A stretch of 32,000 bases of DNA from Nitrososphaerota archaeon (GCA_022564515.1 JADFLH010000002.1:25007-57006), one strand, 5' to 3'; shown: positions 8,135 to 24,555, counted from the stretch's first letter. Notes: generated from the sequence alone by a model not told the origin. Made by a program: numbers and translations.

Positions 8135-8335
8135 ATGAGATATGTCCCACCAAAAAAACTTAAAGTTCTGATGATGGTTTTTTTTGGAACGGGGGTTTTT
8201 GGAATAGCAGTTGGGCTAACTCAAGAAATTTTCATGATGACATTTATGGGAGTTATCAACCTCTGTTTAGGCGGTTTTTTTGGCTGGATTTTTCTAAACC
8301 AAGAACCACGTTCAAAACATAAACGAAAGAAATAG
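8135..8335 (+). CDS. Small two-TM membrane protein (66 aa)
   Basis: Two hydrophobic helices and a basic C-terminus. The 3' end overlaps the convergent neighbour by 24 nt. Confidence 0.4.
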   Translation: MRYVPPKKLKVLMMVFFGTGVFGIAVGLTQEIFMMTFMGVINLCLGGFFGWIFLNQEPRSKHKRKK

Positions 8336-8860: not shown

Positions 8861-8942
8861 ATCAAGAAAACATTTACTCTAATCTATAAATACTCTGGTT
8901 GGTTTTTCTGGGAATTATCTAGCCATTTGTTATATAACCTAT

Positions 8943-9416: not shown

Positions 9417-9461
9417 AAATCTGTTGATAATCAAAATATAAATAATTAAACACTTTCAAAA

Positions 9462-10022
9462 ATGAAAGAGTTGCTTGATCTTGTTCCAAAGCTGTTATTT
9501 CTGACCAAAGGTAAAGGCGTTCATGAAGATAGGCTAACTAGCTTTGAGTATGCCTTAAGGGATGCAGGAATCGCCAGTACTAATTTAGTCTTAATTTCGA
9601 GTATTTTTCCGCCTCGAGCTAAACTTATTTCAAAAAAAGAAGGTCTAAAACTGATAAAGCCTGGTCAGATTTTATTTTCAATTTATTCTAGAAACCAAAC
9701 AAATGAACCACATAGACTATGTGCATCTTCTGTTGGAATAGCTCAACCAAAAGATCCAAATCGTTACGGTTATCTTTCTGAATATGAATCATTTGGGCAA
9801 ACAGAAAAACAGGCTGGTGATTATGCAGAGGATGTGGCAGCTCAGATGCTGGCATCTTCGCTGGGAATTCCCTTTGATATAGAAAAAAGCTGGGATGAAA
9901 AAAGACAACAATGGAACATTTCTGGAGAAATTTACAAAACTAGAAACATCACTCAAACCGCTATAGGTGACAAGAATGGAAAATGGACATCAGTTTTTGC
10001 GGCTGCCGCTTTGTTGGTCTAA
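9462..10022 (+). CDS. pdaD: Pyruvoyl-dependent arginine decarboxylase
   Basis: LTSFEYALRDAGIASTNLVLISSIFPP contains the SS self-cleavage site, and the C-terminal FAAAALL is typical of PdaD. Confidence 0.9.
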   Translation: MKELLDLVPKLLFLTKGKGVHEDRLTSFEYALRDAGIASTNLVLISSIFPPRAKLISKKEGLKLIKPGQILFSIYSRNQTNEPHRLCASSVGIAQPKDPNRYGYLSEYESFGQTEKQAGDYAEDVAAQMLASSLGIPFDIEKSWDEKRQQWNISGEIYKTRNITQTAIGDKNGKWTSVFAAAALLV

Positions 10023-10024
10023 AC

Positions 10025-11182
10025 TCACTTTTGGTATCCTTTAAGGTAAAATGCAGTTGCACCACCAGCTACAATCACTATCATAATCAAAATAATAATT
10101 GATTCATCAAAATCTGGAATCTCTGATGGAGGAATTTGATTTATTTGTGCCGTGCCAAGAGTAAAAACCAATTCATTTTTTTCTAAATACAATTTGTGAC
10201 CAAACAGATATTTTCCCTCTATCTTATTTCCCGAGTCTGGATCAAAAACCCATCCATCTTGAGAAAGCTCAACTGGAATTTTATCACCGCCAATTATTTT
10301 AGTTTGAAGAACGTTGGCATTAACCTCATTAACAGTAACATTCACAGATGATAAAATTACCACTTGTAAAATTGAATTAAGAGGATAAAAATTGCCTGAA
10401 AAATAATCTGATCTTTTTAGAACATCTATCTTCAAAAATTCTAATGGACTTATCACATCAATATTTGCAGAGTTTGGATAAGAGACCGAAAGCTTTAGCT
10501 GATAAAGAAATGAATTTTCTTTTGAAATCATTGAAAAGGTAACTGCAGAATTTGGTTCTGAAGACAATTTTTTGGCAGTTTCATAAAATCCGCCAGAATC
10601 TCTAATTACTTGGTGAATTAACATTGAAGAAATTTTAGTATACATTGATTCAGTTTCTTCTAATGGCATGGTGTATACTGCTGAAATAGTTCCTATGCCA
10701 GAAATCACTCCCGATGTCTCAAGTACTCGATTCACTTCTCCACTTTGATGAACATAAACAGAATGAAATTCTGCACGGGTATCAAAAACTTCATTCAGAC
10801 TATCAATTAATGAGTCTCCTATCTGCCTTGCACCTTCTTGAATTTCTATAATGCCTTTCTCAGATAGGTCTCTTGAAACATTAATCATAATACAAGATTC
10901 ATCTTGAACTCCAAGAACACATTGTTTTTCACTAGTCAACACAATTGCAATAATTCTTTCATTTTCTCGAATTTTTTGTTCCAGTTCAGATGGGATTTGT
11001 ATTTCTTGATTGCTAGTACTTTGGAGGGTTATTGAGGCAGTTACATTATTTGATAATTGTTGGTCGATGAAAACTTGGGCAGTTTCTTGAAAAGTTGCAA
11101 GCTGTGGTTGTTGTGCATAAACCTCAAAAAAACTGTAAAACAAAAGACAAAATATTGCAGTTAATAGTATAAGTTTGTACAC
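10025..11182 (-). CDS. Secreted, C-terminally membrane-anchored hypothetical protein (385 aa)
   Basis: N-terminal signal-like helix and a C-terminal TM helix (IIILIMIVIVAGGATAFYL) followed by KGYQK. Confidence 0.6.
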   Translation of the reverse strand: MYKLILLTAIFCLLFYSFFEVYAQQPQLATFQETAQVFIDQQLSNNVTASITLQSTSNQEIQIPSELEQKIRENERIIAIVLTSEKQCVLGVQDESCIMINVSRDLSEKGIIEIQEGARQIGDSLIDSLNEVFDTRAEFHSVYVHQSGEVNRVLETSGVISGIGTISAVYTMPLEETESMYTKISSMLIHQVIRDSGGFYETAKKLSSEPNSAVTFSMISKENSFLYQLKLSVSYPNSANIDVISPLEFLKIDVLKRSDYFSGNFYPLNSILQVVILSSVNVTVNEVNANVLQTKIIGGDKIPVELSQDGWVFDPDSGNKIEGKYLFGHKLYLEKNELVFTLGTAQINQIPPSEIPDFDESIIILIMIVIVAGGATAFYLKGYQK

Positions 11183-11214
11183 AAAGTGCTCGTTTTAGTG
11201 CGAAACTATTAATG

Positions 11215-11370
11215 TTACTCGTATAATTTCTCGATTTTAATTATGAATCTATGAAACGGTTCTTCAGCATAATGTTTTTCACAAACAAGTATTGTTTGGT
11301 TTTTTTCAGGGGTGCAATCATATGTAATTTTATACTTTGGCATTTGATTACAGCATCTACAATACTTCAT
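11215..11370 (-). CDS. Small Cys-rich protein (51 aa), below the ORF-track length cut-off
   Basis: My own translation gives MKYCRCCNQMPKYKITYDCTPEKNQTILVCEKHYAEEPFHRFIIKIEKLYE*. It is more protein-like than the opposite-strand track ORF 11251..11442, which is Phe/Ile-rich low complexity. Confidence 0.35.
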   Translation of the reverse strand: MKYCRCCNQMPKYKITYDCTPEKNQTILVCEKHYAEEPFHRFIIKIEKLYE

Positions 11371-11702
11371 CAAGTTAATATCGTAACAAAAAATAAAACA
11401 TTTTCAAGAATTAAAGAATATTTGAAACTTATTCTCTTATAACCTACGCATTAAAAGAAACAAAACAATTCCCAACAACTACCCATTAATCCAAATATCC
11501 AAAATAATAGGAAATCATTCTCAAAATACAGTATAATTTTTGCCAACAGTGAAAATCTTGGAATCTAGAATCAAGATTTAAATTCCATTCATTCTGCACC
11601 AAAAGTGACATCGATTCAAACCGATCGGGGAACAATGACTGGCAGTCTGTGCGTTAGGCTGCCAGCCCCACTTTGTTATAAAATTCCATTTCAAATTTGT
11701 AT

Positions 11703-13484
11703 TTAATTTAGGGTAGATAGTGTCCTAACTTGGTTTTTTATATAATCAAACCCATCCTGCCAGAATTTTGTTGAACGGATATCAATTTGGTATTCTGATA
11801 ATAGAGTTTCAGGCTTTATCGAACCTCCAGCACCAAGGATGCTAGCATAAGAAGATACAAAGTCTTTTCCATCATTTTTGTATCTCTGGAATAGCGAAAG
11901 TGCTAGCAGATTTCCAAAGGAATAGGCATAGCAGTAAAATGGTGAGTGAAAAAAGTGAGGTATACAGTTCCACTCTATCGAAAAATCATCTGTCAACGAA
12001 ACCGAATTACCAAATTGTACTTTAAGATTTTGTAAATATGTTTTCGATAACTCATTAACAGTCGTACTGTTAGCAATTTGTTTATGTGCGTCAATTTCAA
12101 AAATCGTGAAAAAGGATTGTCGCATAATTGTTGCATAAAGATCATCAATTTTTTCAGTCAGCATTAACCTCTTTTCATCATCAGTGATTTTATCTGACAA
12201 ATTATCATACAGTAACAATTCTGAAAATGTAGATGCAGTCTCTGCAAGAGGAAGTGATGCGTCCTGAACAAGAATTGATTTATCTGACGCCAACTGACTG
12301 TGGATTGCATGTCCTAATTCATGAGCTAGTGTAAACACATCTCTTGATTTACCAGTAAAATTGATTAATACATATGGAGTAATATTTGGTGCCAGAGTGC
12401 TACAAAACGCTCCATCTCTTTTTCCAGTTCTGACTTTAGAATCAATGTGATTTTGATCAAATATCTTTTTTGCAAATTCTGATAATTTTGGGCTAAACTT
12501 TGAAAGGGATTCTAAAACTAGTTTAACTGATTTGTCATAAGGGTAATTCTTCTCTTTAATTTTAGTAGTGGGAGCATAAAGATCATATCTTCTCAATTTT
12601 TTTACTTTAAGCATTTTTGCTTTTTGTAAAAAGAATTTTTGAAAAACTGGGGCGTTTATTTTACATACTTGTAACAATGAATTGATAGTTTTCTCACCAA
12701 CATCATTTCCAATATTTCGCATGGAAATTGGAGATGGATATCCTCTAATCTCAATTCCCTCATCTTTCCAATTTAAAACGATGTTTTGATAAATTTCTCC
12801 AAGAACTCCCTTGTTATTTGAAAATTTTGATAATAGTGCTTTGTAAGCTGCCTCCCTTGTCTTGGAGCTTGTGCTCCTAACAAGTGTAGTCAGTACCTCT
12901 CTGGAAAGCTTTTTCTTTTTGCCTTTAACAGTTACCGGATATTCAAATGCATTGGTAATCTTATCATACAATTTTACTAGGGCAGTTACTCCAGTAACAT
13001 CAAGCGTGTTAATTATTCTCTCTTCTGCTTCTGTTAGTGAGTATTTTGCAACTAGCCTTTTATGTCTCAAGTATCCTGATAGTTCTCCAGAATCTTTTAT
13101 CAATCGCTGTGCATTTTTTTCATCTATTCCTCTTTTCCACCACAAATCAAAAAAGAGAATCTGGTTTGAAATGCTTGCGCCAAGCATTGTCATGCGAGTC
13201 ATCAATGATGTCGCTTCATCCGATTGAGTATCCGCAGCATAAGCAAGGGATGAGTAACCCCCTAAAATGCTAATTTTCTCGGTAAGCCCTTCAAGTGAAT
13301 GTAATATCTTTAGAAAATTCTTTGAGGTAATTTTTGATTCTAGTATTTTTTTGTTTTTTTCAAAATCTTTGGCCTTTGTTTGAACGTATTTGATTTGTTT
13401 TTCAAAAACTGGATTTTTTGGATCCTTTACTAATTCTTCAAGATTCCATTCTCCAAGTTTGTATCTCTTCATATTAATTCTCAA
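11703..13484 (-). CDS. pepF: Oligoendopeptidase F (M3B family zinc metallopeptidase)
   Basis: Length of about 590 aa, HELGHAIH zinc motif, and a downstream ETASTFSE (third ligand Glu). The start may instead be the ATG at 13472 (MKRYKLGEW). Confidence 0.9.
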   Translation of the reverse strand: MRINMKRYKLGEWNLEELVKDPKNPVFEKQIKYVQTKAKDFEKNKKILESKITSKNFLKILHSLEGLTEKISILGGYSSLAYAADTQSDEATSLMTRMTMLGASISNQILFFDLWWKRGIDEKNAQRLIKDSGELSGYLRHKRLVAKYSLTEAEERIINTLDVTGVTALVKLYDKITNAFEYPVTVKGKKKKLSREVLTTLVRSTSSKTREAAYKALLSKFSNNKGVLGEIYQNIVLNWKDEGIEIRGYPSPISMRNIGNDVGEKTINSLLQVCKINAPVFQKFFLQKAKMLKVKKLRRYDLYAPTTKIKEKNYPYDKSVKLVLESLSKFSPKLSEFAKKIFDQNHIDSKVRTGKRDGAFCSTLAPNITPYVLINFTGKSRDVFTLAHELGHAIHSQLASDKSILVQDASLPLAETASTFSELLLYDNLSDKITDDEKRLMLTEKIDDLYATIMRQSFFTIFEIDAHKQIANSTTVNELSKTYLQNLKVQFGNSVSLTDDFSIEWNCIPHFFHSPFYCYAYSFGNLLALSLFQRYKNDGKDFVSSYASILGAGGSIKPETLLSEYQIDIRSTKFWQDGFDYIKNQVRTLSTLN

Positions 13485-14409: not shown

Positions 14410-15351
14410 TTGCTGCTGTATGTGTGGGTTCTAGTATGTAGCTGGATAGTACTTACTAGTTATTTTTACCAAAACGGGAATAAGTCATTTAGATGTAAAT
14501 TGGCTACTAAAAAAGTTATTTTCGGAAACTATCCAGTTGACGTTAAAAAATATGAAGAGATTAGAGATGAGCTTTTAAAATTTGGTTTGACATCAAATCA
14601 AGTAAAGGTATTTTTTTATCTTGGAAAATTTGGTTCAAAAACGGCAATTGAGATAAGCAGAAATTTAAGAATGCCAAGAACTGAAACGTATCATCTTTTG
14701 TCATCACTTCAAAGTAAAGGAATGGTTATGTCAAGTTTTAATCATCCAACTAAGTTTTCTGCAATTCCATTTGACAAAGCAATGGTTGCTCTTCTCAATG
14801 CAGAATCAGAACGGCTAAAATCTTTAAAAAATTCAGAAGATATCCTAAAAAAACTATGGGCTAAAATTCCTAACTTTGGATCCAGCCTTAATGAGATAGA
14901 AGAAGAGAAATTTCAGATATTAAGAGGTGAAAATCAGGTAAAAAGTAAAATCATGGATATGATTTCTGATGTTGAAAAAAAGTTTTTAATTCTTGGCTGC
15001 GAGGATGATTTTTTGAGATTTTATCGTGCAAATTTCCTTGAACTTTTTGAAAACAGCTCGATCAATTTCAAATTCCTTACTTCCACTTCAGAAAATGCAT
15101 GGTACATTTTTGATGATATTGACAAATCAAAGATAAGACAAGTTGCCAATTCAGTTATAGAAAATCTCTGCTTTCTCATTAAAGATGATAAAGAAATCCT
15201 CATTTTTGTAAAAAATTCGAAAATTATCCAAAAAGAGGTAATTGCACTTTGGACAAATTCTAAATCTTTAATTTATTCTAATATTCTTTTGTTCAAGAGT
15301 TTGTGGTCTATCCAATCAGAATCCATTATAGAACAAAAGATTTCAAAATAG
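14410..15351 (+). CDS. TrmB-family transcriptional regulator
   Basis: LLKFGLTSNQVKVFFYLGKFGSKTAIEISRNLRMPRTETYHLLSSLQSKGMV is a TrmB winged helix-turn-helix. The start is uncertain: no ATG precedes the HTH, and the candidates are TTG 14410, GTG 14422 and TTG 14500. Confidence 0.8.
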   Translation: MLLYVWVLVCSWIVLTSYFYQNGNKSFRCKLATKKVIFGNYPVDVKKYEEIRDELLKFGLTSNQVKVFFYLGKFGSKTAIEISRNLRMPRTETYHLLSSLQSKGMVMSSFNHPTKFSAIPFDKAMVALLNAESERLKSLKNSEDILKKLWAKIPNFGSSLNEIEEEKFQILRGENQVKSKIMDMISDVEKKFLILGCEDDFLRFYRANFLELFENSSINFKFLTSTSENAWYIFDDIDKSKIRQVANSVIENLCFLIKDDKEILIFVKNSKIIQKEVIALWTNSKSLIYSNILLFKSLWSIQSESIIEQKISK

Positions 15352-15463
15352 GTTCAATTCGGACCTAAAATGATGGATGATAGATTCTAACGGATAGTTG
15401 GTATTTCTGGCCTATACTGAGTGATGAAAAGAATTTACTGGTGGGTATTGTGTAGAATTTGTT

Positions 15464-16288
15464 TTGGATTTAAAATCAATCATTGGACTTGGCGTGGCAG
15501 GAAATTTCACCGGTCATCTGGAACAAGCAGGTGAAGCAGAAGATTTTGCAAATATTAAAGTTCAAGACGAAAAGGCGCCAAAGGGCTTGTTTCCTTTTTA
15601 TTCAAATTCCAAAACGGGAAAGTTCATAGAAATTTATCCATTATCATCGAGCAAAATTTCTAGGCCGCCAAAAGGCGAGAGCCTACAAATTGAACCAGAG
15701 GTAGCACTAATTTGCGAAATTTCTTATAATAAGGGTCAAGTCATTGATCTCAAACCAAAAAAATTTACGGCATTTAATGATTGCACCATTCGCAAGCCAG
15801 GAGCTAAGAAGATAAGTGAAAAGAAGAACTGGGGAAAAAACTCAAAGGGTATTTCCTTGACTCATATAGACATTGATGGATTCTCACGCGGAGGTGTAAT
15901 GGATACATACCGCCTTGCCTGTTATTTGAAAAGGGATAACGAATTGCATGAATATGGTATAGATAGTCCTCTTATTGGTTATAGCTATTTTTATGAGAAG
16001 CTGCTCAACTGGATAGTTTTTAAAATGAATACACAGAACGATGAAGGTCCTTTGGAATCCATTGCAATGCATTTGAAAGAGTCCGGATACCCTGCTAATG
16101 CAGTTATAGCGATTGGCTCAACACGCTATACCGAATTCGGCGAAAGTACGTTTCTAGATGTTGGAGATGAGAGTTTCATTATAATTTATGATTCAAAACT
16201 CCATACCAGAAGATCCGTTGAGAAACTTATACAAGATTCAAATTACACTGTTAGTGGGCTATCTATTTTACATCAAATAGTTGTTTGA
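15464..16288 (+). CDS. Conserved hypothetical protein (274 aa), possibly a distant fumarylacetoacetate-hydrolase-like fold
   Basis: Long clean ORF with a TTG start. The N-terminal GLGVAGNFTGHLEQAGE loosely resembles the G.N(Y/F)..H..E motif of FAH-family proteins; this is a weak call. Confidence 0.5.
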   Translation: MDLKSIIGLGVAGNFTGHLEQAGEAEDFANIKVQDEKAPKGLFPFYSNSKTGKFIEIYPLSSSKISRPPKGESLQIEPEVALICEISYNKGQVIDLKPKKFTAFNDCTIRKPGAKKISEKKNWGKNSKGISLTHIDIDGFSRGGVMDTYRLACYLKRDNELHEYGIDSPLIGYSYFYEKLLNWIVFKMNTQNDEGPLESIAMHLKESGYPANAVIAIGSTRYTEFGESTFLDVGDESFIIIYDSKLHTRRSVEKLIQDSNYTVSGLSILHQIVV

Positions 16289-16430
16289 ATTTTTGCCAAA
16301 TACCCCTAGCTAAAGCTCAGTGGACAAGTAATCTTTAATGACTGGAAAACAAACAGCAACCCGTTTCATAAATCTTGGAATCTTTTCAAGAAAAAGAAAA
16401 AGAGGTAGTTCTCCATTCAGGAGAATTTAG

Positions 16431-17567
16431 TTACGTTGCTGGTATTGAATACCATGGCTTGCGTGGCCACATGCCCCATTTCACAATAAGTGAAATTACG
16501 GTAAGGTATATCATGACAATTATTGGTTCGATCCAGTTTGCATTTGCAGTTCCAGGTTCGATTCCCATAGCCGGCTCTACTCCATAGAGAAGTAATGCTC
16601 CTGCTCCTAGAGGCATTATTGCAACGAAGACAAACATGAGACTCCATGATCTTGCTATTGCGCCTCCCAAGTCACGATATGTGCCGTGTGGTTCTTTCCA
16701 CTTGTCTTTTCCTAAATACGTCTGCATACCACCGCAGTACCAATACACCATTCCTTGTAACAGCATAGCACCTATAATGTTACCCAGAGTTACTGGAACA
16801 AGATTATTGAACCATGCTTCACCCCATGTAACTTCGGCACCAGCCCAAATTCCAGCTGACAGGGCAAAATGATTAACGATGCTGTGTTCAAACCCTGTAG
16901 CAAAGAATACTGATACTGGTATTCCGATCAAGACAATCTTGGCGATCACTTCTTGTGTTCTGAAGGCTCCCCATACACCCATGCCAATCATCCAGTTTGC
17001 AAAGATTCCACGGTAGAACAGCTGGTCCCATTGAAGACCGACTGACTTTACAGTAGCGATTTTTGCAAGCATGTTCATAAGTGGAGCTCCTACTGCGCCT
17101 GCTTGATCTGCGCCAATGACAATCATCCATCCAATGACAAATCCTGATATCCAGTGACCTGCATGTGTTATGCCCCATTGATAAAACACCTCTAGCCACT
17201 TTAGTTGACCCGTCATCAGCGATATGCCCGTAGTCATATAGTCCCCAGTTACTAGGTTGGAACCATATATGATGACGAGTACTAATGCGGCGAAGCCGAA
17301 GATGCCGAACATGAGGAACTTTCCAAGTCCTGGAGATAGGTCTGTTGCCACAGTTGACATGACCATCCATGCAAAGAAGGCTGCAAATGCAAGATAACAC
17401 ATTGACTGCCAGCCCATTATTATGCCCTGAGCTGGATTACATTTTGCCTTTGCAACTCCTAAGGTACTTAATGTTTTGATTGTATCCCGTATGCCAAGTA
17501 ATGCTGCATTCATCCGTGGTGGAGGAACATCAGTTGGCGTACTAGGAGGTTCTGTTTGCGTACTCAT
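16431..17567 (-). CDS. Formate/nitrite transporter (FNT) family anion channel with N- and C-terminal extensions (378 aa)
   Basis: FNT signatures are present: NLVTGD, FANWMIGMGVW, GFEHSIVNHF and NLVPVTLGNIIG. About 98 further residues follow the normal C-terminus, with two more hydrophobic helices. The sampled lines are about 45% GC. Confidence 0.85.
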   Translation of the reverse strand: MSTQTEPPSTPTDVPPPRMNAALLGIRDTIKTLSTLGVAKAKCNPAQGIIMGWQSMCYLAFAAFFAWMVMSTVATDLSPGLGKFLMFGIFGFAALVLVIIYGSNLVTGDYMTTGISLMTGQLKWLEVFYQWGITHAGHWISGFVIGWMIVIGADQAGAVGAPLMNMLAKIATVKSVGLQWDQLFYRGIFANWMIGMGVWGAFRTQEVIAKIVLIGIPVSVFFATGFEHSIVNHFALSAGIWAGAEVTWGEAWFNNLVPVTLGNIIGAMLLQGMVYWYCGGMQTYLGKDKWKEPHGTYRDLGGAIARSWSLMFVFVAIMPLGAGALLLYGVEPAMGIEPGTANANWIEPIIVMIYLTVISLIVKWGMWPRKPWYSIPAT

Positions 17568-17636
17568 ACTTCACGTAGCTGACTTTTCTTATTATATAAC
17601 GTTAATTGTATTATTCCGGTTTATATCATCAATTTC

Positions 17637-17656
17637 AGATCTATGTAACTAGATCT
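17637..17656. promoter_or_regulatory. Palindrome AGATCTA-tgtaac-TAGATCT in the divergent FNT/LTD intergenic region; a third AGATCTA lies at 17717..17723
   Basis: Read directly from the sequence. It sits about 40 nt distal to the TATA-like ATTATATAA at about 17592..17600, which is itself about 25-33 nt upstream of the FNT ATG. Confidence 0.5.
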
Positions 17657-17853
17657 TTTATCTACAGTTAGTTGAGCAAAAAATGACAAAAATTTAGAGT
17701 TCGCTTACAATATAAAAGATCTAGCCATCTTATTGACTTTGTAAAGACAACATAAATTCTAATAAAATTCCCCGACATCGGGTAATTTGCATCCAGTCCA
17801 TGCACATGTGTTAAAAAAACCAATTTAAGGCTGTATAATATCACAAAAATGGT

Positions 17854-18813
17854 TTGGGGAGTTTATTATTGCTCATACATCTAGCTTTATCATTACTCGT
17901 TTTACCAGCAGCTTTTGGGGAAGAGTCTAGTGGTATGATTATCAACGAGCTTGAACTAAATCCGCCTCCAGGGGAAGCTCAATGGATAGAACTGTATAAT
18001 CCAACCACATCTTCAGCTTCTTTGAACTCTCTTGAATTATTGTCCGTCGATGGTGAAAAAGTCAAAAAAAGATTCAGTCTTTCACCTATCTTCCAGGAAA
18101 ACATCAAACCCGGGGAATACTATGTAGTACAAATAGGGGAACCGCAAAATAATTTCTTTGACTATAGACTTAATTCATTTGTTTTATCGGATGGACAAAC
18201 AACTTTAGATTCTGTACGTGGGTTAAGTGATGAACTTGCAAATGAACGGACTTGGCAGCGCTTTCCAGATGGTGGAGATACGGGAGAATTCAAGGATTGG
18301 ACTTTTAGACCAGCTACAAAGGGGACAGAAAATAGCGACGTAATGACACTTGTTGCCGAGTGTTACCTCAATCCATTCTGCTGGGGGGCACTAGATGTAT
18401 TTATGCACAGAGCACATATCGTAAAAGTAGAAGATGTTCAGTTTTCGATTGGCACATTTTATGATCCCACTTTACTTAGGGTATACTTAATTCCTGAAGA
18501 AAAAAAAATTACAATAAAGAAACCATTAGTAGACTTGGCTCAGGGGGATAGACCTGCATTTATGCACGTAACAATACCTATTGAACTTTTGAGTGGGACC
18601 TATTCTGTCAATTCTGAAAAGGGTCCACTGCCTTTTGAACAAATAGATAATGGAACCCACTCTCGGTTGATAATAGGAGGGCTTTCACACGAAAGCTTGA
18701 TTGAAATAACCGGGACAGTGATTGTTCCTGAATTTTCACTTGGCACGCTAATGCCAATGGTGGCTGCAATTTTTCTAGTCATATTGTTAAAGCAGAGATT
18801 TTGGAAATATTGA
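17854..18813 (+). CDS. Secreted lamin-tail-domain (LTD) protein with a PEFG-CTERM-like anchor
   Basis: Signal peptide (LLLLIHLALSLLVLPAAFG). LTD motif INELELNPPPGEAQWIELYNPT...L.SLELLS. C-terminal VPEFSLGTLMPMVAAIFLVILLKQRFWKY. TTG start; the exact start is uncertain. Confidence 0.8.
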   Translation: MGSLLLLIHLALSLLVLPAAFGEESSGMIINELELNPPPGEAQWIELYNPTTSSASLNSLELLSVDGEKVKKRFSLSPIFQENIKPGEYYVVQIGEPQNNFFDYRLNSFVLSDGQTTLDSVRGLSDELANERTWQRFPDGGDTGEFKDWTFRPATKGTENSDVMTLVAECYLNPFCWGALDVFMHRAHIVKVEDVQFSIGTFYDPTLLRVYLIPEEKKITIKKPLVDLAQGDRPAFMHVTIPIELLSGTYSVNSEKGPLPFEQIDNGTHSRLIIGGLSHESLIEITGTVIVPEFSLGTLMPMVAAIFLVILLKQRFWKY

Positions 18814-18938
18814 GGTTCTCATAAGAAAACATGTTTTGGTCAAGCTGTATAACACCTGTAAGAAATTTTCATCTTGTCAAGAAATTTTTATGTCTTGAAT
18901 TATTCAGCGCATTATTGTTATGTGTTTGATTGTACTGC

Positions 18939-18986
18939 GATCTAAATATTGATCGGTCGATCTAAATCGATCATGTAGATCTAAAT
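18939..18986 (+). repeat. Three exact direct copies of GATCTAAAT (starting at 18939, 18959, 18978) interleaved with further GATC sites, upstream of cynS
   Basis: Read directly: gcGATCTAAATattGATCggtcGATCTAAATcGATCatgtaGATCTAAATaaag. A TATA-like TATAATA at about 19011 follows, 29-36 nt before the ATG at 19047. Confidence 0.85.
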
Positions 18987-19046
18987 AAAGTAGCAATCCC
19001 AAAAAAAGAGTATAATACTACTTGATCGATTACACTATTGAGCAAT

Positions 19047-19598
19047 ATGGCAGATTTAGTAGTAACAGATGAAACCATAATGGCCGCAAAACTTGCTATG
19101 GAAGCAAAAGGATACAATTACACAGGCGCTGGCGGGAAGAAATCACTGGCAGCAGTCATTAAGAGAAATCCTGTATTCTTAGCTGCAGCAATAAATGGAG
19201 TGCAAAGACTTACAACCTCTGATGCGGACGCGATCGCAAATACTCTTGGCCTTTCGGCACAACAAAAGGCAGAGTACAATCGCCACCCAAGGAGAAAATT
19301 CTCAGCATTGCCAAATGATCCATTCAATTACAGATTGATAGAGGTCATAGCAAACTATGGGGATCCCGTAAGAGAGATTGTCAATGAATTGTTCAATGAC
19401 TTCACCCTCCCAGGAAGTGGAGATTCAGGACGTGGTGGAGACGGAATAATGAGTGCAATTGACTTTAGTTACCACGTCTTTAGACGTACAGAAGGTAACC
19501 AAATACCTGAAACAATATTACAAGAAGCAGATCCAAAGATGAACAACAGATGCACCATATTAATGGACGGCAAGTGGCTAAACTTCAAAGCATTCTAG
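19047..19598 (+). CDS. cynS: Cyanase (cyanate hydratase / cyanate lyase)
   Basis: Compared from memory with E. coli CynS: PNDPFNYRLIEVIANYG vs PTDPTMYRFYEMLQVYG, GDGIMSAIDF vs GDGIISAINF, and the C-terminal MDGKWLNFKAF vs LDGKYLPTKPF. The catalytic Arg, Glu and Ser are all present. The ATG at 19047 is preferred over the TTG at 19038. Confidence 0.85.
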   Translation: MADLVVTDETIMAAKLAMEAKGYNYTGAGGKKSLAAVIKRNPVFLAAAINGVQRLTTSDADAIANTLGLSAQQKAEYNRHPRRKFSALPNDPFNYRLIEVIANYGDPVREIVNELFNDFTLPGSGDSGRGGDGIMSAIDFSYHVFRRTEGNQIPETILQEADPKMNNRCTILMDGKWLNFKAF

Positions 19599-19643
19599 CA
19601 AAAAAGTAAAGCGGTTATAACCAAACTTTCCCTTTTTTTATTT

Positions 19644-19805
19644 TCAACAATCGGTAAGAAGGTGTCCGATAAATTTCAAACCAATTGTTAAATCGAGATC
19701 CCCAAAAGGATTTTTACATTTGCAACGAACCTACATTCCTTTTACTTGGTTTGCTTTGGGATTTTTTGTCACACGATATTTTATTGTTTTAAGATTGCAT
19801 TTCAT
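19644..19805 (-). pseudogene. Small Cys-rich reading frame interrupted by an in-frame TAG (19731..19733)
   Basis: My own translation gives MKCNLKTIKYRVTKNPKANQVKGM*VRCKCKNPFGDLDLTIGLKFIGHLLTDC*. It shares the CNLKTI motif with the neighbouring small ORF. Confidence 0.25.
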
Positions 19806-19832
19806 TCTTTGGGCAGATAAACCATTCCAGTT

Positions 19833-19994
19833 TCAATCTTCCACCGCTTTCCACTTTTTGCAACAAAAATAATACATTGTTCCTCTTGGTTCTTTACCCT
19901 CTTCAAAATATGATCCTACTCCTTGTAATCTCATTGGCTTACCGCATTCATCACAAATTGTTTCCTTTTCTTTGATTTCTTCTATTGTTTTCAA
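19833..19994 (-). CDS. Small zinc-ribbon-like protein (about 53 aa) with a putative TTG start overlapping the upstream stop
   Basis: My own translation gives (M)KTIEEIKEKETICDECGKPMRLQGVGSYFEEGKEPRGTMYYFCCKKWKAVED*. It has a CxxC ... CC pattern. The TTG at 19994..19992 overlaps the TGA at 19993..19991 of the 94-aa ORF. No ATG occurs before Met21, so this may instead be a frameshifted remnant. Confidence 0.3.
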   Translation of the reverse strand: MKTIEEIKEKETICDECGKPMRLQGVGSYFEEGKEPRGTMYYFCCKKWKAVED

Positions 19995-20275
19995 GTTGCA
20001 TCTTCCCTTGCATGAGAACTCGTTACTTCATTGGCTGCACTCCATACCATAGAACAATACCTGCATTTTTCTACATGCTTGGCTAAAAAGACCCCCTCTT
20101 GAAATCGAACGTCTTGTGGACTCAATCCTATTCTATGAGCCAAGTCCTCAACTCTTGCTCTCTTTTCTTCATCCATTTCAACTCCTTCTGCTATTTTTTC
20201 TAAAAGTGGATCATTTCTGAAAACATCTTCTTCATCAAAATTTTCCGAATGCAACAAGATAGAAAAAAGCTCCAT
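19991..20275 (-). CDS. Hypothetical acidic protein (94 aa) with one CxxC
   Basis: Clean ORF with an ATG start. No motif recognised apart from CRYC. Confidence 0.45.
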   Translation of the reverse strand: MELFSILLHSENFDEEDVFRNDPLLEKIAEGVEMDEEKRARVEDLAHRIGLSPQDVRFQEGVFLAKHVEKCRYCSMVWSAANEVTSSHAREDAT

Positions 20276-20620
20276 GAATAAAACATTGGTAATAAAAGGA
20301 ATTAGACAAACTAAGCTCTAACAAAACATATTTTCGACTACCTAGTCAAACGCAGTTTTTCAATCGTAAAAGCGATTAAAATTGCTTATCTACAGGCGTA
20401 AGTTTTCATCTTTCAAACCTGAATGGTCAAAAGTGGGATGCCATTCTCAATTAAATGTCGATCAGTCAACCGATTGCACTAAAGGATCAATCCTCAAGTG
20501 AATAGATCTTTTTTGCTAGGAGTGAAGTCTTTCATAATTTTGTATGGTGGAAAATCTACCTCATTTTACATGTTAAATCATAACTTAAGAATCGAAATAA
20601 ACAAGGGTCTAATTATTTTT

Positions 20621-21556
20621 TTATTTGTTTAACACATTATTTAATTCTAAAATGCTAGACTTTTTCTTTAATTCCTTGATAACTATAATATTGTCATCTA
20701 TCATTGAATGTGTATTTAGCCTAAATTTCATTAGCACATTTAAAAATTCAACTCGTTCTTCAGGATTCAGAGTTTCATTGGCCTCATTTATGAGACCATC
20801 CAGATTTGAAAGTAACATCCTCAGAACTAACAAAGACTTCTTGAATATTTTGATCTGTCGCTTTGGTGACGTATCTTGTTGTGAGGAAGTATTGTAATTA
20901 TAGTCACCAATAACTTGCTCTAACTCTATTTCCTTCTTCGAAGCTTTAGTGATCTCTCTAATGTTCTTAACGGACAAGTTTTCATCAATGATTGCATCTT
21001 TAAGCAATTGTTGGTACCCCTCATCCAGATTAACCAGTTCCATTGCATGAGAAACGCCAAGATTTTTTTGAGATATTTCATATAGGATCTCTTTTGGAAG
21101 TCTAAGTAACTGAATTCTGGCAGAGATGTTTTGCTCGCTTTTGGAAATGACTTTTGCTAGATGAGAAACTCCTCCCCAACCATAGTCCACGATGTATTTC
21201 TTGAAAGCCTCTGCCTCTTCTATAGGATCAAGACTTTTTCTTTGTATATTTTCAACAAGCTGGATTTCAAACGCTGCCTTGTCAGACAGTATCCTAACAA
21301 TACAGGGAATTTTTTTCCACCTTAAGAGTTTACATGCATTATATCTTCGGTGACCTGAAACTATTTCAAAACCTACTTCTGCTGGTCTGACCGTTATGGG
21401 TTGAATAAGGCCATGCTCCCGTATGCTTGCAGCTAATTCCCTTTTTGCATCAACTTGAACAATTAGAGAATTTCCTGTCCTGACTGTTAGCACTGCAGGT
21501 TTTATGCTGCGAATTTCAATGAGGTCTTGAATAGATTGGTCAGTAATAAGGATCAT
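20621..21556 (-). CDS. ParB/Spo0J-like protein (N-terminal ParB/Srx domain, HTH, helical C-terminal region); no ParA partner nearby
   Basis: LAASIREHGLIQPITVRP....FEIVSGHRRYNACKLL is the ParB N-terminal box including the GxRR motif. IQLVENIQRKSLDPIEEAEAF and the HTH-like VSHLAKVISKSEQNISARIQLLRLP follow. Confidence 0.8.
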   Translation of the reverse strand: MILITDQSIQDLIEIRSIKPAVLTVRTGNSLIVQVDAKRELAASIREHGLIQPITVRPAEVGFEIVSGHRRYNACKLLRWKKIPCIVRILSDKAAFEIQLVENIQRKSLDPIEEAEAFKKYIVDYGWGGVSHLAKVISKSEQNISARIQLLRLPKEILYEISQKNLGVSHAMELVNLDEGYQQLLKDAIIDENLSVKNIREITKASKKEIELEQVIGDYNYNTSSQQDTSPKRQIKIFKKSLLVLRMLLSNLDGLINEANETLNPEERVEFLNVLMKFRLNTHSMIDDNIIVIKELKKKSSILELNNVLNK

Positions 21557-22070
21557 TGGTACCCCTCGGTGATGTACTCCACGTCTTTACTCATGTTAAT
21601 TCCAAAAGGTAGTGATATTAATAAACTTAAATTTATTGTTGAGGTCTCCCGATATTTTCCCAACATTATAGATATGCAGGTGTTGTGAAACACAGAAATG
21701 AAATGATGTTTTTTCCAATAAAATAAATTTCATTTAAAATTATAAATCACTAAAACTACGAAAATCCTTCAACAATCAAAGATTCATGCGAAAAGGTCTT
21801 TTTTGGCCAATCTTAATTCCAGTTTTTTGGTTTTTTTAAAAAACTAAATTACACAATATTTTAGTAATAGAAATTATATTTTTTAAGACTCAGTTCTGAA
21901 ATGCCTAAAAATCCAATTCCATGTTTATTTTCATGTGCAAGTTTTTCATATTATTTTTCTTTGATGAAAATTTGGCATTGCTTTTGAATATTCGTTTCTA
22001 CTACGGTAAAAAAACAGAACCTTAAAAGTTAAATCGAAGCCAAAAATATTCTAAGGGTGGAATCAAAGAA

Positions 22071-22193
22071 ATGAAAGACAAGAGTGGAGATGTAAAAAAA
22101 AAGAAACCAGCTTCTAGGAGGTTTTGGATTGTTTATGGGATAGTAGCTATCGGTGGGGCCGCTATACTATACTTATTGGGCTGGGTTATTTGA
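22071..22193 (+). CDS. Small single-TM protein (40 aa), below the ORF-track cut-off
   Basis: My own translation gives MKDKSGDVKKKKPASRRFWIVYGIVAIGGAAILYLLGWVI*, a basic N-terminus plus one TM helix. Confidence 0.3.
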   Translation: MKDKSGDVKKKKPASRRFWIVYGIVAIGGAAILYLLGWVI

Positions 22194-22279
22194 TGGCCAA
22201 AAATCGAGTCCATGTATAAGACCTGATTTTGTACATGAGATGTAGATCTTATATACCGACAGCAAGATTATCTTTTTGA

Positions 22280-23173
22280 TTGGATTACCAAAAATATGAA
22301 AAAATGCCTCTTGAAAGGGAGGTATTGTGGCAAGGTCCAGTAAAAATAGACCAAAGTTTCGTTAAACATCTTTCAGACTCAGACCATCATGAAGATTTTC
22401 AAATATACACAATAAGAGATTCTAAATATCATAAGGAGGATAATGGACAATATGACAACACCGAATTGGTGGGAGATTTTCCTAACACGGTAACAGTAAT
22501 TGTAAAAGGTAAAGAAATTTTGGATTATATGCAGTGTTCCGCATTTAAGGACTATGAATATGTGGAGAGGACTAAGGGATTCTTCTTCAAGGCCGGTGTA
22601 AAAAAAAGGATAGTGGTTAAAGGCTTTGTCCTTGAACCTCTTTCAGATACTAAAGTAGTGGATCATGCATGCTTAGCCTCAATTCAATTCGATAATCAAG
22701 AAACTGGCAACGAAATACAATGGAATTTCGTTCATACGGGACTAACCGATAAATTTGTTTCAGAAAGTGATTTTTTTACTTTGGGGGGATCATTTACTCT
22801 AGAAAAGTTGGGATTGGCAGGGTTCGCCTCAGGCTCTCATGGTTCAACTATCACCTTCGCTACCGACCCCAAACACTCCGCAACAATTGCTTTCGTTGCT
22901 TCAGACTCTAAGCCTTTCACAGTACTCCTTTATTCCAAATACGGAACGAGGAGGCTTACATACACCAATGCTGGGTTGAAGACAGAGGAGTGGAAACCAG
23001 AAGAACTCACAGACCCAGCTCCAAAGTCAGGGCAGTCAGAAGCCTCCAACGATGCGTTAAAGATTCTTAATACTCGACTCGCTAGAGGAGAATTAACGAT
23101 ATACGAGTATGAGGAGCTTCGAAAGGCAATAGAAGGTGAAAATCGCCATTCTTATACTGACTATTGGGCATAA
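22280..23173 (+). CDS. Protein with an uncharacterised beta-rich N-terminal region and a C-terminal SHOCT domain
   Basis: The C-terminal ALKILNTRLARGELTIYEYEELRKAIEG fits the SHOCT pattern (L..L..L...G.I(T)..E(Y/F)...K..L). The TTG at 22280 lies about 25-30 nt downstream of the TATA-like TTATATA at about 22249. The alternative ATG is at 22304. Confidence 0.65.
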   Translation: MDYQKYEKMPLEREVLWQGPVKIDQSFVKHLSDSDHHEDFQIYTIRDSKYHKEDNGQYDNTELVGDFPNTVTVIVKGKEILDYMQCSAFKDYEYVERTKGFFFKAGVKKRIVVKGFVLEPLSDTKVVDHACLASIQFDNQETGNEIQWNFVHTGLTDKFVSESDFFTLGGSFTLEKLGLAGFASGSHGSTITFATDPKHSATIAFVASDSKPFTVLLYSKYGTRRLTYTNAGLKTEEWKPEELTDPAPKSGQSEASNDALKILNTRLARGELTIYEYEELRKAIEGENRHSYTDYWA

Positions 23174-23367
23174 TCAAAACCGAATCATTTCAAATCTTTT
23201 GATATGAAATTGTCATGACTGATATTCTCAATCTGGCAAGTTGTCACAAGGGATGATGTATAACAACTCATCAATCAGGATGGAAATTAATTGGAACCAC
23301 AAAAAACATTTTTGCAAAAACCAACAGATTGCAATTGATTATCCGTCTTCATTTGGGTATTGTATTA

Positions 23368-23562
23368 TTATATTATATTTTGAACGCGTCCTATTTTTCC
23401 ATTGTCCAATTCAACTTTAATTCCATGAGGATGAAAATTACTCGAAGTAAGAATTCTCTTAACTATGCCTTCAATCAAATTTTCGGTACGTTGATCTTGT
23501 TTTTGTACTATCTGTACCTTCACTCCAATTTTTATTTTATCCCTTGAAGGTACAGCACACAC
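23368..23562 (-). CDS. ywbE: YwbE-family (DUF2196) small protein
   Basis: IKIGVKVQIVQKQDQRTENLIEGIVKRILTSSNFHPHGIKVELDNGKIGRV matches the family hallmark (DQ..G.L..G.V..ILT.S..HPHGIKV.L..G..GRV). GTG start. Confidence 0.8.
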   Translation of the reverse strand: MCAVPSRDKIKIGVKVQIVQKQDQRTENLIEGIVKRILTSSNFHPHGIKVELDNGKIGRVQNII

Positions 23563-23642
23563 TGATTTTTGGTACTGATGATGGATTCTAAATCTTTGTT
23601 TTGATAAAATTGCGGAGTTTTGAGAGTTACTCTAAACAATTT

Positions 23643-24242
23643 CTAATTTTGTTTGTGATTTTGGAAACATTCTTTGCAATAAACAGGTCTGTCGTCTTTT
23701 GGCTTGAATGGTATTTGACATTCATTTCCACAGTCACCACAGGTTACGGTAAACATTTCTCTTGGTATGTCGCCTCTTGAACCTCTACTAAACCTGGAAC
23801 CTCTGTCATTTCTACCATAACTCGATACTCTACCATAACTCGATCCTCTGCTAAATCTAGAGCCACCACTACGTTCTTGTGGTTTGTGATTTTGGAAACA
23901 TTCTTTGCAATAAACAGGTCTGTCGTCTTTTGGCTTGAATGGTATTTGACATTCATTTCCACAGTCACCACAGGTTACGGTAAACATTTCACTTGGTCTG
24001 TCGTCTCTTGAACCTCTACTAAACCTGGAACCTCTGTCATTTCTACCATAACTCGATACTCTACCATAACTCGATCCTCTGCTAAATCTAGAGCCACCAC
24101 TACGTTCTTGTGGTTTGTGATTTTGGAAACATTCTTTGCAATAAACAGGTCTGTCGTCTTTTGGCTTGAATGGTATTTGACATTCATTTCCACAGTCACC
24201 ACAGGTTGCGGTAAACATTTCTCTTGGTCTGTTAAATGACAC
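23643..24242 (-). CDS. Protein with three CxxC-x17-CxxC zinc-ribbon modules separated by RG/SY-rich low-complexity linkers
   Basis: The module EMFTVTCGDCGNECQIPFKPKDDRPVYCKECFQNHK occurs three times, separated by ERSGGSRFSRGSSYGRVSSYGRNDRGSRFSRGSR linkers. The start is either GTG 24242 or ATG 24218. Confidence 0.8.
   Translation of the reverse strand: MSFNRPREMFTATCGDCGNECQIPFKPKDDRPVYCKECFQNHKPQERSGGSRFSRGSSYGRVSSYGRNDRGSRFSRGSRDDRPSEMFTVTCGDCGNECQIPFKPKDDRPVYCKECFQNHKPQERSGGSRFSRGSSYGRVSSYGRNDRGSRFSRGSRGDIPREMFTVTCGDCGNECQIPFKPKDDRPVYCKECFQNHKQN
23652..24242. repeat. Tandem DNA repeat with a 231-bp period, about 2.6 copies (23652-23882, 23883-24113, 24114-24242)
   Basis: Compared by eye, units 1 and 2 differ at 3 of 231 positions, all within about 20 nt. 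Unit 3 is identical to unit 2 over its first 94 nt and differs at only 2 positions before the two diverge at the gene's 5' end. Confidence 0.95.
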
Positions 24243-24410
24243 GTTCTTCCAAAACTTTGTGAAATCGTGTTATAATTAAACTATTACAAAATTGTTAGAG
24301 AAATCCAACTATAATTGAGAGAAAAATTATTTCTTTTTTCATTTTCTTTGCCTCTTAGTTAAATTACTCATAAATTCTTCTAAAATTTTGTACTCAAAAA
24401 AATATGAAAA

Positions 24411-24504
24411 TAGACCGGATGGGATTTGAACCCATGACCATTGCGGGATTTAAAATCCATACGCAGTGTGAGTGCGTCATCCTAAACCACTAGACAACCG
24501 GTCC
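24411..24504 (-). tRNA. tRNA-Val (anticodon CAC) carrying a roughly 20-nt insert between the anticodon stem and the T stem (putative non-canonical intron)
   Basis: The reverse complement is GGACCGG-TT-GTCT-AGTGGTTTA-GGAT-G-ACGCA-CTCACAC-TGCGT-[ATGGATTTTAAATCCCGCAATGGTC]-ATGGG-TTCAAAT-CCCAT-CCGGTCT-A. The total is 94 nt, against 74-75 nt expected. Confidence 0.7.
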
Positions 24505-24555
24505 ACTGGTTTTAGAAATTAAGAACTTTTTTGTCTTTAGATTATGGAAAAGAAT

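Follow-up and report, generated by a model that had tools for sequence, protein, structure and literature searches.

Among the described cyanate loci, those closest to the one treated here are E. coli cynTSX, which holds the canonical cyanase CynS (structure 1DW9), and the cynS-FNT locus of Nitrososphaera gargensis and some Nitrospira, in which a gene for an FNT-family channel adjoins cynS and has been hypothesised to serve as the channel for cyanate (PMC10753782). In the papers that we searched, cyanase among ammonia-oxidising archaea is limited to N. gargensis and a few Nitrososphaeraceae metagenome-assembled genomes (MAGs); sponge and marine Nitrosopumilaceae are without it, and the paper on the Ianthella basta symbiont itself reports no cyanase. 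Marine Thaumarchaeota are reported to oxidise cyanate-derived nitrogen by an unknown route. Here, we analysed a stretch of 32,000 nucleotides (nt) from a Nitrososphaerota archaeon (GCA_022564515.1, JADFLH010000002.1:25007-57006; hereafter the window), in which a preliminary description had pointed to a block at 16300-23200 as a possible horizontally acquired island. We found that the block, extended to about 15400-23290, carries genes for a cyanase, an FNT channel and several partner proteins. We read it, with a probability of roughly 65%, as an accessory thaumarchaeal cyanate-use cluster that was transferred as a unit within the phylum and lies at a variable site linked to a tRNA-Val gene. 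The pairing of cynS with FNT, the concept of the genomic island and the naming of the cyanase gene in GenBank were known before. What is new is a clade of cyanases with long insertions in Nitrosopumilaceae-type hosts, an extended conserved cluster, and a compositional footprint of this cluster across its hosts.

The locus shares with that of N. gargensis and Nitrospira the presence of a cyanase gene beside an FNT channel gene. In comparison to the Nitrososphaera-type cluster, it is without the HTH24 and o121 genes and has a DUF5718 gene and two small open reading frames (ORFs) in addition; its cyanase is 183 amino acids (aa) long instead of about 140-163, carries two insertions and is 43% identical. 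In comparison to canonical CynS, the catalytic triad, the C-terminal DGK.L..K.F motif and the two-domain fold are kept, however, identity is only about 25-30% and the two insertions lie in the C-terminal domain. Moreover, unlike E. coli cynTSX, the window has no carbonic anhydrase (cynT) or cynX gene and possesses an FNT channel instead. The resemblance to tRNA-linked islands consists of an accessory block, deviant codons, a variable region that starts from the 3' side of the tRNA, and differing contents in relatives. Unlike such islands and integrative elements, the window block has no integrase, att repeats or mobility genes, two genes of native composition separate it from tRNA-Val, and elsewhere the cluster is not adjacent to a tRNA.

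Gene identities were taken from Pfam and NCBIfam profile matches, and tRNAs from ARAGORN and Rfam. The features of the cluster are the following (GC, guanine-cytosine content):

15464-16288, + strand: DUF5718 protein (PF18985, 350 bits), leftmost gene of the island
16431-17567, - strand: FNT-family anion channel (PF01226, 174 bits; cut-off 34.6)
17568-17853, no strand: FNT/LTD divergent intergenic region, 30% GC, three AGATCT sites
17854-18813, + strand: secreted LTD protein with a PEF-CTERM-like anchor (LTD 31.8 bits, under the Pfam cut-off of 34.3)
19047-19598, + strand: divergent 183-aa cyanase, cynS (PF02560, 70.9 bits)
19833-20275, - strand: two small ORFs, o53 (53 aa) and o94 (94 aa), population-specific
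16305-20510, no strand: segment FNT-LTD-cynS-o53-o94, inverted in the close relative L032 (blastn)
20621-21556, - strand: ParB/Spo0J-type protein (PF02195 and PF17762; TIGR00180)
21557-22070, no strand: AT-rich divergent spacer between ParB and o40-SHOCT, 514 bp, 28% GC
22071-22193, + strand: o40, a 40-aa single-pass membrane protein, conserved beside the SHOCT gene
22280-23173, + strand: SHOCT-domain protein (24.1 bits, under the cut-off of 27)
23284-23304, no strand: right junction of the island, where DNA identity to L032 drops across an indel

The earlier naming of the FNT, LTD, cyanase-like, ParB and SHOCT genes was thus borne out by the profile matches, and the AT-rich spacer was found as described. 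The host is a Nitrosopumilaceae-type (marine-type) ammonia-oxidising archaeon of 35% GC, and the window shares a 100% identical sucD (MCH7967827.1) with an NCBI MAG that carries the label 'Thaumarchaeota archaeon'. The named relatives that come next by sucD, at 85%, are listed by NCBI as 'Nitrosopumilaceae archaeon'. Independent assemblies of at least 10 samples gave the locus with identical junctions, and it is thus not a chimera or an assembly artefact.

The same gene set recurs in other thaumarchaeal lineages

Genes for FNT, the LTD/PEF-CTERM protein, cynS, o40, SHOCT and ParB recur in at least six other thaumarchaeal lineages and in different contexts. Identities to the window proteins were as follows:

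L030 (sediment, 35% GC, different flanks): cynS 75%, FNT 77%, LTD 61%, ParB 64%, SHOCT 53%, o40 60%
L021-L026 (56% GC, contigs of up to 2.25 Mb): cynS 66%, FNT 76-77%, LTD 46-47%, SHOCT 45%, o40 60%
L034 (about 60% GC): FNT 66%, LTD 34%, cynS 42%, SHOCT 37%, ParB 57%
L037 (contig of 41% GC): FNT 66%, LTD 33%, cynS 43%, SHOCT 35%, ParB 54%
L117 ('Nitrososphaera sp.' MAG, about 47% GC): FNT 64%, LTD 37%, cynS 43%, SHOCT 40%, ParB 54%
L035 (circular, 1.88 Mb, 49% GC): FNT 70%, LTD 44%, SHOCT 43%, o40 41%, no cynS or ParB

The ranking of the lineages by identity is equal across the genes (L032, then L030, then L021/L025, then L034, L037 and L117), and thus the genes appear to have travelled together. 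Flanks and gene order differ between lineages; in L117, for example, the order is HTH24-o113-ParB-o82-SHOCT-cynS-LTD-FNT. The nearest relatives of the window genes (66-90%) are found in other Nitrosopumilaceae-like genomes. The LTD gene lies within a few kb of the FNT gene, mostly directly adjoining it, in all eight lineages. As L035 carries LTD-FNT-SHOCT-o40 (at 7188-12500, adjoining an IS605 OrfB, TnpB-like, gene) and no cynS, the LTD-FNT-SHOCT trio can exist without the cyanase. In L021-L026, transposases of the IS3, IS66 and IS630 types (IS, insertion sequence) are interspersed with the cluster. The label 'Cenarchaeum-like' used below comes from a related FNT cluster, P0251, which has 'Cenarchaeum sp. 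SB0663_bin_5' as a member, and it is not an identification of L021-L026.

An HTH_24 regulator of about 177 aa and a protein of the o121 family of about 120 aa accompany the cluster in five lineages (L030 1577-2580; L021 8166-8519 and 19589-20179; L034 12586-13598; L037 6036-7066; L117 4239-5225), and the HTH_24 copy of L030 or L021 is 58-65% identical to those of the other lineages. A CLC-type chloride-channel gene adjoins cynS in L030 (8893-10559) and L025 (10782-12149) but has no counterpart in the window. Both in L030 (35% GC) and in L025 (56% GC), gene calling splits it into two ORFs.

The cluster deviates from its hosts toward an intermediate composition

In the Nitrososphaera MAG (L117) the cluster matches its host, its GC at third codon positions (GC3) being 0.45-0.58 and that of the flanks 0.46-0.62. 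In L034 it stands out as a low-GC island of 10 kb with sharp ends, at which GC falls from 61% to 42% (about position 3750) and rises from 40% to 56% (about 14000), GC3 being 0.33-0.50 inside and 0.68-0.85 outside. Similarly, in the 56%-GC genomes GC3 of the cluster is 0.52-0.61 against 0.75-0.85 in the host. In three hosts of 35-37% GC, on the contrary, FNT (45-46% GC) and cynS (43-46%) lie higher than the host. Such deviations in opposite directions toward an intermediate value fit a transfer between hosts of unlike GC, and they do not fit selection on expression. Since the cluster is at host composition in a genome of about 47% GC, an intermediate-GC origin within the phylum is reasonable. 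A donor within the phylum had been proposed in the preliminary description, and this part is supported by the composition match in L117, the thaumarchaeon-specific FNT family and the PEF tails. Likewise, the homologous block was met in unrelated contexts (L030, L021-L026, L034, L035, L037 and L117), and it is compositionally foreign in L021-L026 and L034.

In the window itself the signal is weaker than previously described. The block at 16300-23200 had been given as 40-50% GC against about 27-37% in the flanks; these figures were wrong, as we measured 37.7% in the block, 34.2% in the left flank, 35.4% in the right flank and 35.3% in the whole window. The inflated contrast arose because GC had been counted in single 60-nt lines, over which the standard deviation (SD) is 6.5-7.9 points. 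The single-line values were too high for LTD, SHOCT and ParB and too low for ileS, several of them being off by 4-10 points. GC of whole genes is 45.3% for FNT, 42.6% for cynS, 39.9% for SHOCT, 39.4% for LTD and 35.8% for ParB, in comparison to 34.6% for ileS and 38.5% for PiT outside the block; FNT and cynS alone stand out. In 1-kb windows, GC exceeds 40% only at 16001-18000 (with a peak of 45.1%), the other windows of the block (31.8-39.1%) overlapping with those of the flanks (30.7-38.0%). Among 6.9-kb stretches of the window, the block is the GC-richest.

What stands of the compositional distinctness is a smaller shift in GC3 and codon usage, for which the 26 neighbouring genes of the window served as the reference of host composition. 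Pooled GC3 is 0.341 for island genes and 0.259 for outside genes (Mann-Whitney p = 5e-4, island vs outside). The 26 outside genes have GC3 of 0.262 +/- 0.037 with a maximum of 0.322, which four of the nine island ORFs surpass: FNT (0.398, z = +3.7), cynS (0.375, +3.1), o40 (0.366, +2.8) and SHOCT (0.352, +2.4). ParB, LTD and DUF5718 are 1.5 to 1.7 SD over the outside genes. Each of the seven island genes with a length of 250 nt or more surpasses the mean of the outside genes. The long island genes also deviate more in codon bias (distance 0.34-0.38) than do native genes that reach 900 nt or more (0.16-0.28).

The site next to tRNA-Val is variable among relatives

The island lies between housekeeping genes, with PiT, a DEAD helicase, tRNA-Thr, AhpC, PvlArgDC, an M3 peptidase and zf-UBP in the left flank, and DUF2196, a triple CxxC zinc finger, tRNA-Val, L40e, sucDC, ileS and purD in the right flank. 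The features nearest to it are:

14410-15351, + strand: TrmB-family regulator (Pfam TrmB; GC3 0.255, native-like), the left anchor outside the island
23368-24242, - strand: DUF2196 protein and triple CxxC zinc-finger protein (PF09962; PF23477 three times; GC3 0.20 and 0.27)
24410-24505, - strand: tRNA-Val(CAC), 96 nt (ARAGORN, Rfam)

The tRNA-Val gene is thus where the preliminary description had placed it, to the right of the block, and an Rfam scan of the window gave two tRNAs and nothing more.

We aligned the window to relatives, and the block turned out to be absent from the syntenic site of two of them. L118 (sucD 82% identical, 34% GC) keeps o109-sucC-sucD-L40e-tRNA-Val on one flank and o100-zfUBP-M3 peptidase-o385-PvlArgDC-AhpC-o182-tRNA-Thr-DEAD on the other, with 2.6 kb of unrelated genes between them (CBS, Pyr4-TMTC, CSD, eIF-1A, CxxCxxCC); DNA homology ends at window position 24378 and restarts at 14141. 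In L028 (sucD 85%), homology ends at 24383 and restarts in the TrmB gene, whose L028 orthologue (68% identical) borders the variable region; the interval is filled by 3.8 kb of different genes. In all three genomes the variable region begins about 30 nt past the 3' end of tRNA-Val, and only in the lineage of the window is the site occupied by the cyanate cluster. This marks the locus 3' of tRNA-Val as hypervariable. The closest relatives, L011-L020 and L032, carry the island at the same site.

On the right, DNA identity to L032 drops from 97% to 83-89% across the indel at 23284-23304, which sets the border at about 23290. The left limit has to be moved to about 15400, as it should take in the DUF5718 gene (15464-16288).

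Two observations concern the genes between the island and the tRNA, and the tRNA itself. The CxxC-x17-CxxC zinc-finger gene (23651-24343) consists of three tandem 231-nt units, of which copies 1 and 2 are 99% identical, and its homologue in L028 has a single domain; thus, the gene looks recently triplicated in tandem. The tRNA-Val(CAC) gene is 92-96 nt long (window 24410-24505; L028 11170-11263; L118 11339-11430), which we read as the presence of an intron.

The cyanase is divergent and keeps its catalytic residues

The window protein is recorded in NCBI as cyanate hydratase (MCH7967819.1). Its PF02560 score of 70.9 bits is well over the cut-off of 25. By contrast, the Pfam CYNS_N model gave no match, the N-terminal domain being divergent, and the NCBIfam model NF002773 scored 82.2 bits against a cut-off of 150. 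A TTG start of cynS was also considered; it is not on record, and the called gene begins at the ATG at 19047.

Work on the E. coli enzyme (1DW9) reportedly identified Arg96, Glu99 and Ser122 as catalytic. The corresponding R96, E99 and S136 of the window cyanase are invariant in alignments of 17 and of 60 sequences, and an alignment with cyanases from the PDB agrees on these residues. The two insertions in the C-terminal domain are 14 and 13 aa long, and Nitrososphaera-type cyanases have an 8-aa form of the first one, which makes a graded series. An AF2 model based on a multiple sequence alignment reached a predicted local distance difference test (pLDDT) of 86.6 and a predicted TM-score (pTM) of 0.82. 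In a Foldseek search of the PDB, the top 18 matches were all cyanases (probability 1.0, 166-177 aligned columns) with low TM-scores, 0.32-0.38 by query length and 0.37-0.47 by target, probably because a monomer model was compared with domain-swapped crystal chains. As judged from its sequence, the protein represents a divergent 183-aa cyanase subfamily with an intact catalytic triad.

In the tree, archaeal cyanases make one clade with 100% bootstrap. The window cyanase belongs to a separate clade within it, also with 100% support, that is common only to Nitrosopumilaceae-like hosts of 35% and 56% GC. This long-insertion clade is rare (7 clusters at at least 65% identity among 5.8 billion proteins), and its ecological weight is thus probably limited. 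A metagenome scan with the cyanase alignment gave no long-insertion loci, only L037, the short L038 and bacterial cyanases.

The FNT channel belongs to a thaumarchaeon-specific family

The FNT protein is a member of a thaumarchaeon-specific family at 60-96% identity, of which about 100 clusters lie at 60-77%; beyond the family, identity falls to 37% or less. It meets no NCBIfam equivalog cut-off (FocA, NirC). Its best solved relative is Chlamydomonas LCIA (E = 4.8e-31), and the central His is kept, as 'GFEHSIVN' of the window protein aligns with 'GLEHSVAN' of LCIA. As LCIA, and neither FocA nor NirC, is the closest structure, a candidate substrate of the channel is bicarbonate, which cyanase uses as a co-substrate. 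The window protein resembles LCIA/NAR1-type channels in this best structure match and in the His motif, and differs from them in some 100 additional aa at its C-terminus, an extension typical for the thaumarchaeal family (378-440 aa).

The metagenome scan yielded about 78 bacterial cyanase loci, and in 14 of them the fetched flank contains an FNT gene (L043, L045, L048, L049, L052, L055, L063, L073, L075, L078, L080, L089, L095 and L109). It can be concluded that the cynS-FNT pairing is widespread beyond nitrifiers.

Partner proteins are conserved members of the cluster

The LTD protein has a signal peptide and, near its end, '...VPEF..' followed by a transmembrane segment and a basic tail. 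The same arrangement is present in every homologue. The window tail reads 'VIVPEFSLG...KQRFWKY' and the motif is also found in six homologues. No NCBIfam model of PEF-CTERM matched the LTD protein at E <= 0.01. The PEF-type anchor noticed in the preliminary description corresponds to this PEF-CTERM-like tail, which the window protein and all its homologues share.

The SHOCT protein consists of a beta-rich N-terminal region without a known family and a C-terminal SHOCT domain. Its homologues (35-72% identical) are present in every cluster locus, also in L035, which is devoid of cynS, and o40 is conserved beside them (79% in L032, 60% in L021 and L030, 58% in L117, 41% in L035). No match to the SHOCT protein was found in the PDB, PADLOC or PHROG, PDB sequence searches with DUF5718 and LTD were also negative, and a single-sequence AlphaFold model of the SHOCT protein (pLDDT 40) was too low for use.

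The ParB protein has an N-terminal CTPase-type (GxxRxxA) domain with 'GHRRYNA' in this place, followed by a helix-turn-helix, and scores 121.9 bits with TIGR00180 (cut-off 58.45). Copies that are 54-90% identical lie inside the cluster in L032, L030, L034, L037 and L117, and in L032, L034 and L037 the ParB and SHOCT genes are likewise arranged divergently. Neither a ParA-like gene, in the window or in any cluster locus read, nor a convincing palindromic parS-type site was found. The role of ParB is most likely regulatory, or else the gene is a relic of an element's maintenance system; its retention alongside metabolic genes across deeply diverged lineages speaks more for regulation. ParB and SHOCT, which had been listed as accessory-type genes, are thus no stray cargo but conserved members of the cluster.

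The remaining genes of the island are less widespread. The o53 and o94 ORFs are 96-97% identical in L011, absent from all other cluster loci, and give no family matches but weak Zn-ribbon ones; that they could be diverged o121 or HTH24 genes was ruled out by hhalign and tblastn. DUF5718 has, among GTDB species representatives, only bacterial relatives, 45-56% identical (L001-L010: Pasteurellaceae, Campylobacterota, Treponema, Aliivibrio), with no FNT or cynS gene near it in these loci. A decayed DUF5718 fragment, 74% identical in aa, lies between LTD and cynS in the L030 cluster. By its sequence relationships, the gene looks like a bacterial one that joined the archaeal cluster.

AGATCT-centred palindromes occur in intergenic regions of the island (17637-17722, 20504, 22244). 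AGATCTTTT forms an inverted pair in the FNT/LTD spacer, at 17651 (+) and 17714 (-), and is present four times in the window against 1.2 expected, three of the four being in island spacers. The palindromes are conserved in L032 and not in the distant clusters L034 and L037, and AGATCTTTT is therefore weak as a shared operator. Of the shared promoter motifs claimed before, only these weak AGATCT-containing palindromes were seen. A sigma-70 promoter and terminator scan, with a model unsuited to archaea, remained at chance level.

Comparison with a close relative suggests exchange of cluster parts

Comparison with L032 showed that the flank with the zinc finger and DUF2196 genes is 97% identical in DNA, and that the island is a mosaic of windows of 66-98%. 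In FNT, LTD and ParB, the window is much closer to L032 (86-90% identity) than to L030 (61-77%). The cynS gene, on the other hand, is 71-83% identical to L032 in DNA (window 19041-19600 vs L032 6349-6897), its neighbours being mostly at 83-98%, and the cyanase tree places the window sequence beside L030 and P0002, with L032 outside this group (78% bootstrap). This conflict between the cynS tree and the identities of the neighbouring genes suggests an allele swap limited to the cyanase gene. Moreover, blastn aligned L032 3567-7092 with window 16305-19790 in the orientation opposite to that of L032 591-3576 with window 23304-20511. A 4.2-kb inversion (window 16305-20510) thus separates the two, with a CCTAGC-type motif at both breakpoints. 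Taken together, there are signs that exchange of cluster parts continues.

Search for a mobilisation mechanism

Profile scans of 15400-23300 with Pfam, NCBIfam, PADLOC and PHROG revealed no integrase, transposase or other mobility gene. Direct repeats around the block are only 14-16 nt long, i.e., at chance level, and none were found around the L034 island; no second copy of the tRNA-Val 3' end was present at up to 3 mismatches. The earlier statement that there is no integrase and no att repeat was hence confirmed by both kinds of search. A 14/15-nt match of 15466-15480 with 24446-24460 was considered as att and rejected, as it lies in the middle of tRNA-Val and is one of about 20 chance-level pairs. 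IMG/VR scans with SHOCT, ParB and FNT gave no viral relatives, and no tRNA adjoins the cluster in other hosts. A reading as a defence system or prophage was discarded, PADLOC and PHROGs having given only generic ParB matches. The cluster may have moved by homologous recombination via the conserved flanks, through IS elements in the symbionts, or by an integration at a tRNA gene long ago.

Alternative explanations of the locus

Several points weigh against a cyanate-use cluster that was transferred as a unit. There is no integrase, transposase, att repeat, second tRNA 3' end or viral relative, and no donor closer than 61-77% aa identity is at hand outside the window's own lineage. Within the window, the compositional signal amounts to only about 3 points of GC and 8 points of GC3, with just 26 neighbouring genes as the reference. 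The island-less relatives are fairly distant (sucD 82-85%) and all closer relatives carry the island at the site, so that synteny alone leaves loss in the relatives possible; the 97% flank identity with L032 covers just about 400 nt. The hosts of L030, L034 and L037 were assigned indirectly, by their archaeal flanks, the thaumarchaeal FNT family and PEF-CTERM tails. As to function, the cyanase stays under the cut-off of the NCBI equivalog TIGR00673 (69.7 vs 113.3 bits), and its activity is a prediction from sequence; the closest solved relative of the FNT protein is bicarbonate-associated (LCIA), and cyanate is thus not the sole candidate substrate. Finally, the window lacks two companions that the cluster has elsewhere, namely the HTH_24 regulator and the o121-family protein.

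Could the cluster instead be an ancient vertical possession of Thaumarchaeota, lost in most Nitrosopumilaceae and moved within genomes, with its GC set by amino acids or selection? Its architecture is common to the Nitrososphaera MAG and the Nitrosopumilaceae-like genomes, all archaeal cyanases fall together with full support, the genes agree in their identity ranks, and within the lineage of the window the island always occupies the same site. The GC shift is small, and GC1 and GC2 of FNT (0.51 and 0.45) are as expected of a membrane protein. However, GC3 is raised as well, although the protein sequence constrains it little, and long residence would erase the opposite deviation with sharp borders seen in the high-GC hosts. 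The context also differs from lineage to lineage, with IS elements flanking the cluster in some, and the cynS tree conflicts with the neighbouring genes in the window and L032. We thus regard vertical descent as unlikely. A remnant plasmid or virus integrated at tRNA-Val, with ParB as its partition gene, the cyanate genes as cargo and the integrase lost, seems to us improbable: integrase, replication, capsid and conjugation genes are missing from all eight cluster loci, there are no att repeats, no tRNA stands beside the cluster elsewhere and no IMG/VR relatives were found, DUF2196 and zinc-finger genes of native composition separate the tRNA from the island, and ParB is conserved with metabolic genes over deep divergence. 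These points have to be set against the start of the variable region about 30 nt past the tRNA-Val 3' end in three genomes, a ParB of the type typical of plasmid and phage maintenance (PHROG ParB down to E = 6.5e-36), and the presence of ParB inside the low-GC island of L034.

The preliminary description had looked for the donor near Nitrososphaerales of about 48% GC. The cluster is indeed at host composition (about 47% GC) in the Nitrososphaera MAG, and the L034 island is 78-83% identical to that of L117 in FNT, cynS and HTH24, so such transfers do occur. For the window, a recent transfer of this kind is nonetheless very hard to accept, as its proteins are only 37-64% identical to those of L117 (LTD 37%, SHOCT 40%, cynS 43%, ParB 54%, FNT 64%) and its cyanase belongs to the separate two-insertion clade of Nitrosopumilaceae-like hosts (35% and 56% GC). 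Least credible of all is that there is no feature and that ordinary gene-to-gene variance of GC, sampled in 60-nt lines, created the block. The large line-to-line scatter (6.5-7.9 points), a block just about 3 points over its flanks and several quoted values off by 4-10 would agree with it, but GC3 lies above the outside mean in 7 of 7 island genes of at least 250 nt and exceeds all 26 outside genes in 4 of 9 ORFs, and the comparative evidence independently shows that the block is accessory. We therefore retain the horizontal-island reading: its lineage-specific occurrence at the site and its foreign composition elsewhere stand, the original GC figures and left border do not, and a recent Nitrososphaerales donor is not supported.

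Implications for cyanate use by marine-type ammonia oxidisers

Within the reading of a cyanate-use cluster transferred as a unit, cyanate, and perhaps bicarbonate, would enter the cell through the FNT channel, and the cytoplasmic 183-aa cyanase would turn cyanate and bicarbonate into ammonia and CO2. The released ammonia could feed ammonia oxidation or nitrogen assimilation. The cluster would move as a unit among Thaumarchaeota, and the lineage of the window would have received it, or regained some parts through recombination, from a phylum member of higher GC, after which GC3 of the island may have drifted largely, though not fully, toward that of the 35%-GC host.

A divergent cyanase with an intact triad, accompanied by a channel of its own in Nitrosopumilaceae-type genomes (35% and 56% GC), is a gene set in which cyanate use can be tested. 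The locus also illustrates the spread of a metabolic cluster among archaea of very different GC, and it draws attention to four conserved partner proteins, namely LTD, o40, SHOCT and ParB. A wider proposal, which we offer tentatively and rate at somewhat less than an even chance, is that we are dealing with a hitherto undescribed, self-contained cassette that moves across Thaumarchaeota without a recognisable integrase, bears a long-insertion cyanase, and includes partners that function in cyanate sensing or uptake. In its full form the cassette would comprise HTH_24, the o121-family protein, the ParB-type protein, the 40-aa membrane protein, SHOCT, cyanase, the PEF-CTERM LTD protein and FNT, and it would range over Nitrososphaera, Cenarchaeum-like sponge symbionts and AT-rich sediment Nitrosopumilaceae. 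If this is true, LTD, SHOCT and ParB would be working parts of cyanate sensing or uptake, and not hitch-hikers, and some marine-type ammonia oxidisers would gain a direct route from cyanate to ammonia.

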